DNA of 64,000 nucleotides from Eledone cirrhosa (Eukaryota), in contig OZ024741.1 of NCBI GenBank assembly GCA_964016885.1, positions 339,512,001 through 339,576,000 on the forward strand, given 5' to 3'. The notes below the pieces were generated by a model. That model did not search any database and was not told where the DNA came from. It saw only the letters and a program-made list of their open reading frames with translations. Both the position numbers and the translations under genes were made by a program. The first letter of the stretch is position 1, and each line of letters starts with the position of its first letter. Below, in pieces: positions 59,298 to 61,932 of this stretch.

Positions 59298-60078
59298 TTT
59301 TAAAAAGAGAGTGTTTTTTTTTAAAGATACTGTTTTTTCAATATCTATAATATTTTTTGATCATGTCTAGGTATCTTTCGGGACTTGCATTTCCCAAATA
59401 TAATATCGATTTCCTGATGAGATTTTCTGATATGCGATTGCAATTGTTTCATTAATTTGATAGAGATTAATTAATTAATCTGCAAATCATTATTTTTATA
59501 TTTTCCCAATTGTATTTCGTAAAAATTGTAGCGAATGTAGAAATTAATAACATGATTTGAAGTGTTATCTTTAGTTTTTCACCCAAAATAAATTACACAC
59601 ACACGCACAAACACATACAACACATACAACACATACACACGCACACACACACACACACACACACACACACACACACACACACACACACACATACACACAC
59701 ACACACACACACACATGTATGTATATACATATATATATATATATAAATTGAAATAAAATGAAAACGAAATTTCATTTCTCACTCTTAGTATGGCACTTAC
59801 TTAAATGTAAGTATGCATGTATACGTACATACATATATGTATACAGACGTACAGTAGCACGCATATATATATATATATATATATATATATATATATATAT
59901 ATATATACACATATACATATATATGCATACAGGTACACATACATATATGCACGTATCAGTTTAGCGGACGCTTATTATAACGCCGCTTTGTTCGTTTGTA
60001 AACAAACTGAACAGCCTGAATTTATGCCATACGGTGTTAAGGCAACCACGTCACCTTTTTGTTCAACACTGACACAGG

Positions 60079-60123
60079 AACGATGTACTAGTTTCAAGCT
60101 TGTTAGCTATCATCAGCACCGTT
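60079..60123 (-). ncRNA. Minimal type I hammerhead ribozyme, intact core
   Basis: aacggtg CTGATGA t-agct-aaca-agct-t GAAA ctag TA catcgtt. Confidence 0.85.
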
Positions 60124-60577
60124 TACCCATCTGCTAGATAGTTGAACGTTCGAAAGTATATACTTTCCTTATGAAAATTAACGGCTGAGCAGCCTAATTT
60201 GCATATTGAGTGAGTTAAATCGGTCAGGCATACCGTAAACGATAAATTGAAATAAAATGAAAACGAAATTTCATTTCTCACTCTTAGTATGGCACTTACT
60301 TAAATGTAAGTATGCATGTATACGTACATACATATATGTATACAGACGTACAGTAGCACGCATATATATATATATATATATATATATATATATATATATA
60401 TATATACACATATACATATATATGCATACAGGTACACATACATATATGCACGTATCAGTTTAGCGGACGCTTATTATAACGCCGCTTTGTTCGTTTGTAA
60501 ACAAACTGAACAGCCTGAATTTATGCCATACGGTGTTAAGGCAACCACGTCACCTTTTTGTTCAACACTGACACAGG

Positions 60578-60622
60578 AACGATGTACTAGTTTCAAGCTT
60601 GTTAGCTATCATCAGCACCGTT
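60578..60622 (-). ncRNA. Minimal type I hammerhead ribozyme, intact core
   Basis: Identical motif 499 bp away. Confidence 0.85.
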
Positions 60623-61932
60623 TATCCATCTGCCAGATAGTTGAACGTTCGAAAGTATATACTTTCCTTATGAAAATTAACGGCTGAGCAGCCTAATTTG
60701 CATATTGAGTGAGTTAAATCGGTCAGGCATACCGAAAACGATAAATTGAAATAAAATGAAAACGAAATTTCATTTCTCACTCTTAGTATGGCACTTACTT
60801 AAATGTAAGTATGCATGTATACGTACATACATATATGTATACAGACGTACGGTAGCACGCATATATATATATATATATATATATATATATATATATATAT
60901 ATATATATATATATATATATATATATATATATATATATATATATATACACATATACATATATATGCATACAGGTACACATACATATATGCACGTATCAGT
61001 TTAGCGGACGCTTATTATAACGCCGCTTTGTTCGTTTGTAAACAAACTGAACAGCCTGAATTTATGCCATACGGTGTTAAGGCACCTGTATGCATATATA
61101 TGTATATGTGTATATATATATATATATATGTATATGTGTATATATATATATATATATATATATGCAACATGGTTGTCCGGTCAGCATAAGCTGGGTGGAT
61201 TTCATGAGCGAGAGAGGTACAGACCGTGTTGATGTGTGTGAGATGTGAGCAAGAAGAGACCCACACAAGCCAAACGGGAGGAAGTGAGAAGGGGAGAAAC
61301 AGAGAGTGAGTGAGTGGAAGTGTGAGGAAGAGGTCAGTCGAGAGAAAGTGTAACTGACAGAGGGGGCGAAAGAAGGTGAGAGAAACAGAAAGAGCGGGGA
61401 AGCAGTAAGAGAGAAACAGTCAAACGCAGCCGAGGTAAATATATATAAAAAACATGAGAAGAAAGAAGAATACTGCGTGGTTTGCACATGGGTTACATAT
61501 GATAAAAATAGTCCTTCGTCAGTGATTTTCCAACCATCATTGGTATTTCATCGCATTAAAAATCAGATGCCTCAGGTTGGTGCGAGCAATAACTAAAAAA
61601 AGTTATTGGGACCAGAATTCGCGTAAGGCGCGGGGGACAAGTAAACAGCATAGAAGGATAAAAGCAAACCGAAGATAGGAAATATATATATATATATGTG
61701 TGTGTCTGTGTGTGTGTGTGTGTGTGTGTGTATGTGTGTGTGTGTACATGTGTTTACGTATGCATACTTACACACATATACGTGTGTAAGTATGCATACA
61801 AAAACACACGTACTACTAAAACTCTGTGCTTGTGTGCTTGTCTGTAATTTAATACAGCCAAAACACCGCATAATGGGCAAATACTTTGAAAGGAAGTTGC
61901 CCCTGCATCCATTCTGATATATATATATATAT

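Follow-up and report, generated by a model that had tools for sequence, protein, structure and literature searches.

A tandem hammerhead element of Eledone cirrhosa has the insertion signature of Penelope-like elements and a candidate Hydra-clade partner

The 64,000-nt stretch of DNA analysed here, which we call the window, contains a tandem array with one hammerhead motif in each full unit, and it raises the question of what kind of element this is, which enzyme moves it and which form of its RNA is copied. The original prediction described near-identical 499-bp units without an ORF, and units 1 and 2 indeed differ at only 3 positions. The extent it gave, 59743..61165, also holds and includes a piece at 61084-61165 that had been left undescribed and is inverted. 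The array is overlapped by 25 ORFs of 40 aa or more, most of which cross a microsatellite and the longest of which, lying wholly inside, is 123-124 aa; we take none of them to be a gene. The features of the array, and of an older copy in the same window, are as follows.

59716..59742, no strand assigned: (TA)n target, left flank
59743..60241, minus strand: unit 1, 499 bp, outermost in the long arm; the minus strand is the probable RNA sense
59743..59801, minus strand: "tail", ~59 nt between two inferred reverse-transcription start sites (unit positions ~1-7 and 59-66)
59802..59947, no strand assigned: internal microsatellite-like segment, unit positions 60-205, containing a (TA)n run
60079..60123, minus strand: type I hammerhead 1, with U.U stem II junction and palindromic stem III; predicted cut 60086/60085
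60155..60204, minus strand: octamer (60197-60204) and TATA-like box (60155-60162) of unit 1
60242..60740, minus strand: unit 2, 499 bp
60578..60622, minus strand: type I hammerhead 2; predicted cut 60585/60584
60654..60703, minus strand: octamer (60696-60703) and TATA-like box (60654-60661) of unit 2, conserved and U6-promoter-like
60741..61084, minus strand: partial unit 3, unit positions 1-302, 5'-truncated and without a hammerhead
61084..61165, plus strand: second arm, short and inverted, covering unit positions 192 to about 119 and running into (TA)n at its end; the tail-less end
1..601, no strand assigned: another copy of this family, older and two-armed (~84% identical), whose core has decayed to CUGACAA; it runs off the window edge

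The array is flanked by (TA)n on both sides and is one insertion, a young one, of a dispersed family. Its ~59-nt tail is present at the left end only; the meaning of the tail as the stretch between reverse-transcription start sites comes from in vitro work on another element (PMC11167929). At the inversion joint, where the third unit ends (61084), there is a 1-nt microhomology. The (TA)n run of partial unit 3 is 42 nt longer than in units 1 and 2, and it is the microsatellite-like segment (unit positions 60-205) that accounts for variation in unit length among copies.

As originally predicted, minus-strand type I hammerheads lie at 60079-60123 and 60578-60622, with all parts of the motif present (CUGANGA, GAAA, an NUH site, stems I and II, and a stem III or palindrome). 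Both consist of a 7-bp stem I with one G.U pair, CUGAUGA, a 4-bp stem II with a 4-nt loop, GAAA, and a stem III made of the palindrome ACUAGU, followed by the GUA site. Stem I, core, palindromic stem III and GUA are as the prediction had them, but the closure of stem II is not: the closing pair is U.U instead of the usual G10.1-C11.1, and C.A in one subfamily. A strict type I scan of the window found 3 motifs, against 0 in 100 mononucleotide-shuffled versions. The Rfam-model search proposed earlier as a check gave no match in the window at the gathering score, the one weak match being Hammerhead_HH9 at 60068-60130 with 18.5 bits against a gathering score of 52 (E 0.71). The hammerhead looks weak, having a U.U junction and a 2-bp stem III in the monomer, and alone it folds no better than shuffles (z -0.95); the duplex of the ACUAGU palindrome has a predicted energy of -6.8 kcal/mol. 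A monomer fold z of -9.4 was set aside as a hammerhead signal because the microsatellite hairpin causes it. A search for a sister family with an identical stem III and a different 12-nt stem II gave 0 matches.

The variation among copies indicates that the hammerhead fold is under selection. Changes at the level of subfamilies fall on N7, loop 2 and the terminal pair; a stem I pair goes from A-U through G.U to U.G and the stem II junction from U.U to C.A, with both sides altered in each, and the cleavage site from GUA to GUU. Catalytic bases are altered in single copies only, and the fold is kept across subfamilies ~20% apart. The case for selection comes from where the changes fall, which keeps the structure, and not from how many columns vary, since the share of variable columns in the half of the hammerhead that was unascertained (4/24) is similar to that of the remaining unit sequence (62/298). 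The 3' half of the hammerhead belonged to the search pattern for 60 loci, so there it is the loci selected by the octamer that carry weight.

The family is large. In the 3.0-Gb genome a 22-mer from the hammerhead has 17,358 exact matches and one from the octamer 17,369, with 0 for the reversed control of each; these counts are of units, not loci, and miss diverged copies. The young subfamily gives 8,360 matches, and the window copy belongs to a small sub-lineage with 58 tandem junctions. Copies are spread over many chromosomes, with units of ~460-530 nt, and those sampled are 75-100% identical to unit 2. Our sample was drawn from the 30 best DNA matches, 60 stretches from the first hammerhead-pattern matches on one contig (C1), 35 selected largely with the octamer pattern and 40 with young-subfamily patterns. 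Overlaps were merged, one duplicated locus (L023) was removed and loci from Hydra, U6 and U2 queries were not counted, which leaves 175 insertions, biased toward C1 and young copies. A single hammerhead is present in 66/129 insertions and two or more in one arm in 32/129. The window array, with two consecutive complete hammerheads, has what Li et al. require of an "active" copy (at least two), and its short non-coding tandem units, each with a single type I hammerhead, are those of a retrozyme. Among contigs of four runs, the family appeared at high depth in one, as traces in two and not in the fourth; we draw nothing from these depths, the kind of run being unspecified.

The structure of the insertions points to Penelope-like elements (PLEs). 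Two arms with their 3' ends outward were found in 90/175 insertions and the reverse order in 1/175; 2 others are complex and 82 are single-armed at the detection limit, the window copy being scored among these owing to its short second arm. Where both ends of a two-armed insertion could be classified (16/90 could not), 67/74 carry the tail at one end only (p 2e-13), and the ends map to two positions in the unit, about 1-7 and 59-66, ~59 nt apart. Tandems with an inverted, 5'-truncated arm, 3' ends outward and a tail confined to one end are thus present here as in typical PLEs, whose tandem, inverted and one-sided-tail structures are described by Craig et al. 2021 (PMC8557442, consulted in part). 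In vitro, a PLE tail is the stretch between two internal start sites of reverse transcription, with both strands extended (PMC11167929), and by analogy the paired tailed and tail-less ends are the signature of two PLE start sites. The polarity of the arms implies that the RNA is the hammerhead strand, which bears out the earlier choice of the minus strand. The prediction had named, as the result that would count against it, a unit that is simply the pLTR of a PLE and always attached to an ORF; the unit was found as the pLTR of an RT plus GIY-YIG ORF at 0/175 insertions, and no such parent was present among the 35 octamer-selected or adjoining loci, leaving room for a rare parent elsewhere in the genome. 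The copy structure for which it had proposed a genome-wide search is, in the sample of 175, one of dispersed insertions, 90 of them two-armed. We read the element as a large family of non-autonomous, retrozyme-type PLEs and consider it very probable, from these sequence patterns, that a PLE mobilises it.

Which PLE this might be is suggested by a young Hydra-clade family in the same genome, assigned to the clade from its motifs and by eye against Hydra-1_Obim. A 24-mer from its RT motif has 688 matches, its copies are ~99% identical, and among 20 loci there are three open ORFs of ~800 aa (L093, L105 and L109) with the motifs RW, DKT and CxCx5C. It has its own hammerhead and a tail of ~93 nt, and L105 holds a full pLTR-tail-5'UTR-ORF tandem. 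Pfam gave 0 families for two of the Hydra ORFs; they have 16 unnamed homologues, 12 with PF26215. The unit family shares its (TA)n target with Hydra elements, according to the part of PMC8557442 consulted, and has a hammerhead of their type, as the U.U stem II junction occurs in 14/26 Hydra rows of File S2 of Craig 2021 (counted by eye in the same source). More directly, in L084 a 5'-truncated Hydra arm runs straight into the unit, and in L073 a unit arm runs into the interior of the Hydra ORF, the Hydra tail forming the inverted arm. In both, unit and Hydra are in the same sense with a direct joint; of the two ends of each composite, one has a tail and the other none, and the far side holds no remaining Hydra sequence. 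These loci read best as template switching within one event; an insertion that deleted its target could mimic such a fusion. Fusions make up 2/175 insertions, and no further ones were found at 40 young loci. Hydra pieces lie within 250 nt of the insertion at 6 loci and Neptune-like pieces at 0/175, the Neptune queries being three fragments of one Neptune-like copy and of limited sensitivity. No sequence homology was found between the unit and the ends of the young Hydra family. Together with the two-arm, tail and (TA)n signature, the Hydra fusions favour the trans mobilisation by a PLE RT that had been predicted, and we think it likely that a Hydra-clade PLE mobilises the unit.

Several other candidates were rejected. 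At L054:6385-7270, considered as a third fusion, a unit array is nested in a Hydra copy that is older; it lies outside (TA)n and shows a target duplication of 9 bp, and the region is partly duplicated in inverted form. A second Hydra family, HydraA (L038), stands beside units at several loci, always with (TA)n in between, so that only a shared target is indicated. The Neptune-like fragment next to the array (61935-63070) is on the opposite strand and 770 nt off, with other sequence between. At L040 (1857-1905 and 5534-5572) a Hydra 5' end forms a short fold-back with an array in its middle, a hint that palindromes centred on AT may serve as insertion sites. The L038 family itself ends, at 2600-2680, in a hammerhead-like motif with a U4 to A change in the core and an unclear stem I.

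We also looked at how the RNA could be made. The block with the octamer and TATA-like box varies less than any other part of the unit apart from the pattern-selected 22-mer (2/40 columns), and that of unit 2 would place an RNA start near 60631, ~9 nt before stem I. Two U6 loci of this genome (L201 and L202) have an octamer at -76/-77, near the TATA box at -30. In vertebrate U6 promoters the octamer is far upstream. The unit shares 12 identical bases with one U6 promoter (6/1,000 shuffles; significant in 1/5 promoters tested), and no match was found to the U2 promoters of the genome. The spacing from octamer to TATA is 42 nt in the unit versus 46-48 nt in the U6 promoters, and T-runs such as those of the unit tail would stop Pol III; the U6-like promoter is therefore a lead only.

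The form of the template can be approached through the ends and the internal variation of the arrays. Core pieces run through the cleavage site in 348/409 cases, and break points lie within 4 nt of it in 2/144 (4.6 by chance) and avoid no site. Since pieces span the site and break points are not piled up there, the usual template is something other than a cut linear monomer; the scheme predicted for the element keeps its PLE mobilisation but loses the freed linear monomer in that role. Arms reach 15 units with almost no variation (L174). Differences inside arrays of at least 3 units are mostly singletons rather than shared (107 vs 2, and 96 vs 13 in a second test), and rare alleles are common to both arms in L035, L040, L045 and L047, from which we read one template per insertion. 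Singletons alone do not separate a circle from a multimer. The spectrum of array-fixed variants appears RNA-like: A>G on the hammerhead strand makes up 12/46 distinct fixed variants against 28/355 singletons (p 0.0006), an excess as from RNA editing, and C>T/G>A 7/46 against 146/355 (p 0.0006). A>G over T>C alone, with shared lineage variants collapsed, is 12 vs 5 (p 0.09), and a first, cruder A>G test showed no excess (28 vs 21). Circles have been suggested earlier as PLE templates (PMC4209133, seen in part). We regard a circular template for the unit as quite possible, a little short of probable.

Taken together, the patterns make it fairly probable that this is a PLE-signature hammerhead element, copied in trans by a Hydra-clade PLE from a unit-length RNA that is likely read in several passes. 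Minus-strand RNA would be made, perhaps from the U6-like octamer/TATA block. Neighbouring hammerheads, pairing through the ACUAGU palindrome, would cut out a 499-nt monomer, as in known retrozymes, and as in those the monomer could be ligated. The endonuclease/RT, presumably of Hydra, would break (TA)n DNA, and cDNA would start from both DNA ends at two internal sites ~59 nt apart, which is the pattern of ends observed. Each RT would pass the cleavage site and copy as many as 15 units, with the cDNAs joined to each other at short microhomologies, both in keeping with the observed structures. The template would be the unit-length RNA read several times, and a circle would be its likeliest form. 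A more specific version, in which a circle with its own U6-like promoter inside the hammerhead-to-hammerhead monomer is ADAR-edited and then rolling-circle-copied by the young Hydra protein from both ends of a (TA)n break, seems doubtful to us.

The alternative that we take most seriously, a substantial possibility though not our choice, keeps the PLE-driven element and changes the template. This would be linear RNA that is transcribed through a tandem array and left uncut, the RT jumping between templates; the hammerhead would cut rarely, for example only to trim 5' ends, and no circle would form. In the anole PLE uncut RNA is the main substrate in vitro, cleavage is not needed and no reads end at the cleavage site (PMC11167929). 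Minimal PLE hammerheads are poor cutters, and 1/9 Xenopus dimers cut. Such jumps would suit an RT able to switch templates, as at L073 and L084; long parent arrays exist (4+15 units in L174), some variants are shared by a subset of units (L174, L176 and L200), and the hammerhead, with its U.U junction and short stem III, looks weak. Against this, adjacent units disagree at only 57/3,616 comparisons of common polymorphic sites (1.6%), compared with 2.8% between opposite arms and 8.8% for random age-matched pairs. A rate so far below that of random pairs requires single-unit bottlenecks followed by re-expansion, which a circle gives directly, and the preservation of the fold between distant subfamilies also counts against this reading.

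Two other explanations replace the enzyme or the process. That another PLE clade (Neptune, Poseidon or Naiad) is responsible and the Hydra fusions are a coincidence of the (TA)n target is unlikely in our judgement. It draws on the Neptune-like pieces in the window and near some loci, on the preference of Naiads too for (TA)n in the part of PMC8557442 consulted, and on there being only two fusions; it has to contend with the Hydra-type junction of the hammerhead, with the proximity counts given above, limited as the Neptune query is, and with cephalopod Naiads being described as old remnants without canonical hammerheads. Very improbable is a DNA-level satellite or orphan pLTR spread by unequal exchange, with the hammerhead a dead relic. 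Local amplification of PLE termini into tandems has been proposed by Li et al. (10.64898/2026.07.22.740005, seen in part), but the rule of paired ends already disfavours it here, as do the inversions, the dispersal over many chromosomes, star-like variation within arrays, compensatory changes in the hammerhead and 0/175 ORF-linked copies.

The comparisons below rest, for all sources other than PMC11167929, on the parts consulted. Metazoan non-LTR retrozymes (PMC7229834; 10.64898/2026.07.22.740005) likewise consist of non-coding tandem units that are rich in AT, each carrying one type I hammerhead; they have thousands of copies and are proposed to be mobilised by PLEs. Their units are 150-450 bp in the first account and 51-972 bp in the second, against ~460-530 nt here, and in those parts of both accounts we encountered no two-armed insertions, tail rule or (TA)n target. 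Circles and cleavage have been shown for coral, mussel and axolotl retrozymes; for the present family they are predictions from sequence. Homology to pLTRs and co-occurrence are the published grounds for the proposal that PLE enzymes copy animal retrozymes from circles; unlike the retrozymes with such homology, the unit is homologous to no pLTR found so far.

Hydra-clade PLEs, including the hammerhead-bearing Hydra-1_Obim described from Octopus bimaculoides (PMC8557442), share with the unit the (TA)n target, the U.U stem II junction, the tandem plus inverted 5'-truncated arm and the tail at one end. The unit differs in having no ORF, a 6-nt palindrome as stem III, a tail of ~59 nt and ~280 nt between hammerhead and tail-less end, where Hydra-clade PLEs have ~50. 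The anole Poseidon PAc (Frangieh et al. 2024, PMC11167929) also defines its tail by two internal RT start sites, extends both strands and has an RT that passes through the hammerhead site, but it is autonomous, belongs to another clade, has its start sites in an AC-rich loop within the ORF and can dispense with its hammerhead in vitro. Elements of the Chlamys MRC1 type (PMC8557442) are non-autonomous PLEs with multicopy head-to-tail insertions as well, but share 3' sequence with autonomous partners and mostly have no hammerheads, from which it follows that tandems need no ribozyme. Newt satellite 2 (via PMC2220036) also repeats in tandem, has a hammerhead and carries an snRNA-type promoter within its unit; that promoter is described as Pol II, whereas the putative one here resembles the U6 promoters of the genome.

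The giant squid genome has 235 hammerhead_1 matches (PMC6962438), and what PLE hammerheads do is described in print as unclear (PMC8557442; PMC11167929). We found no published description of the unit family or of Hydra-retrozyme fusions in the open literature. The novelty claimed for the family holds to this extent; a PLE origin of animal retrozymes, as non-autonomous PLEs, had already been proposed in print, and the Octopus Hydra hammerhead had been described. This is not a new kind of system. What the family adds is insertion-site evidence, in the form of paired RT start sites and multi-unit arms of a single haplotype, together with no fewer than 8,000 young units and a candidate partner that can be named and has intact ORFs; with these, the question of circle versus uncut RNA becomes testable with the existing in vitro assay. 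If the more specific rolling-circle version were correct, the fused insertions would name the enzyme, and the proposed route through circular RNA could be reconstituted in vitro with a matched enzyme and template, both taken from a single genome.

The window contains several other elements of related kinds. Another (TA)n-inserted hammerhead family, with a long stem II and a UAUAUA palindrome as stem III, lies at 8630-9090 and 47570-47890; the copy at 8630-9090 is two-armed with an 85-nt tail resembling the Hydra tail. Hammerhead motifs are found at PLE-like 3' ends at 2310-2430 (minus strand, with a long stem III) and 34820-34880 (plus strand). The Neptune-like PLE fragment at 61935-63070 (plus strand) starts in (TA)n and has an RT motif, a Cys-rich linker and GIY-YIG, with internal deletions and frameshifts. 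A Hydra-type endonuclease fragment and an inverted pair of 140-bp repeats, the repeats by eye resembling the 3' UTR of the L038 Hydra family, are present at 35168-35572 and 36746-37916. Between 57073 and 59310 there are several copies, in both orientations, of a tRNA-like SINE.
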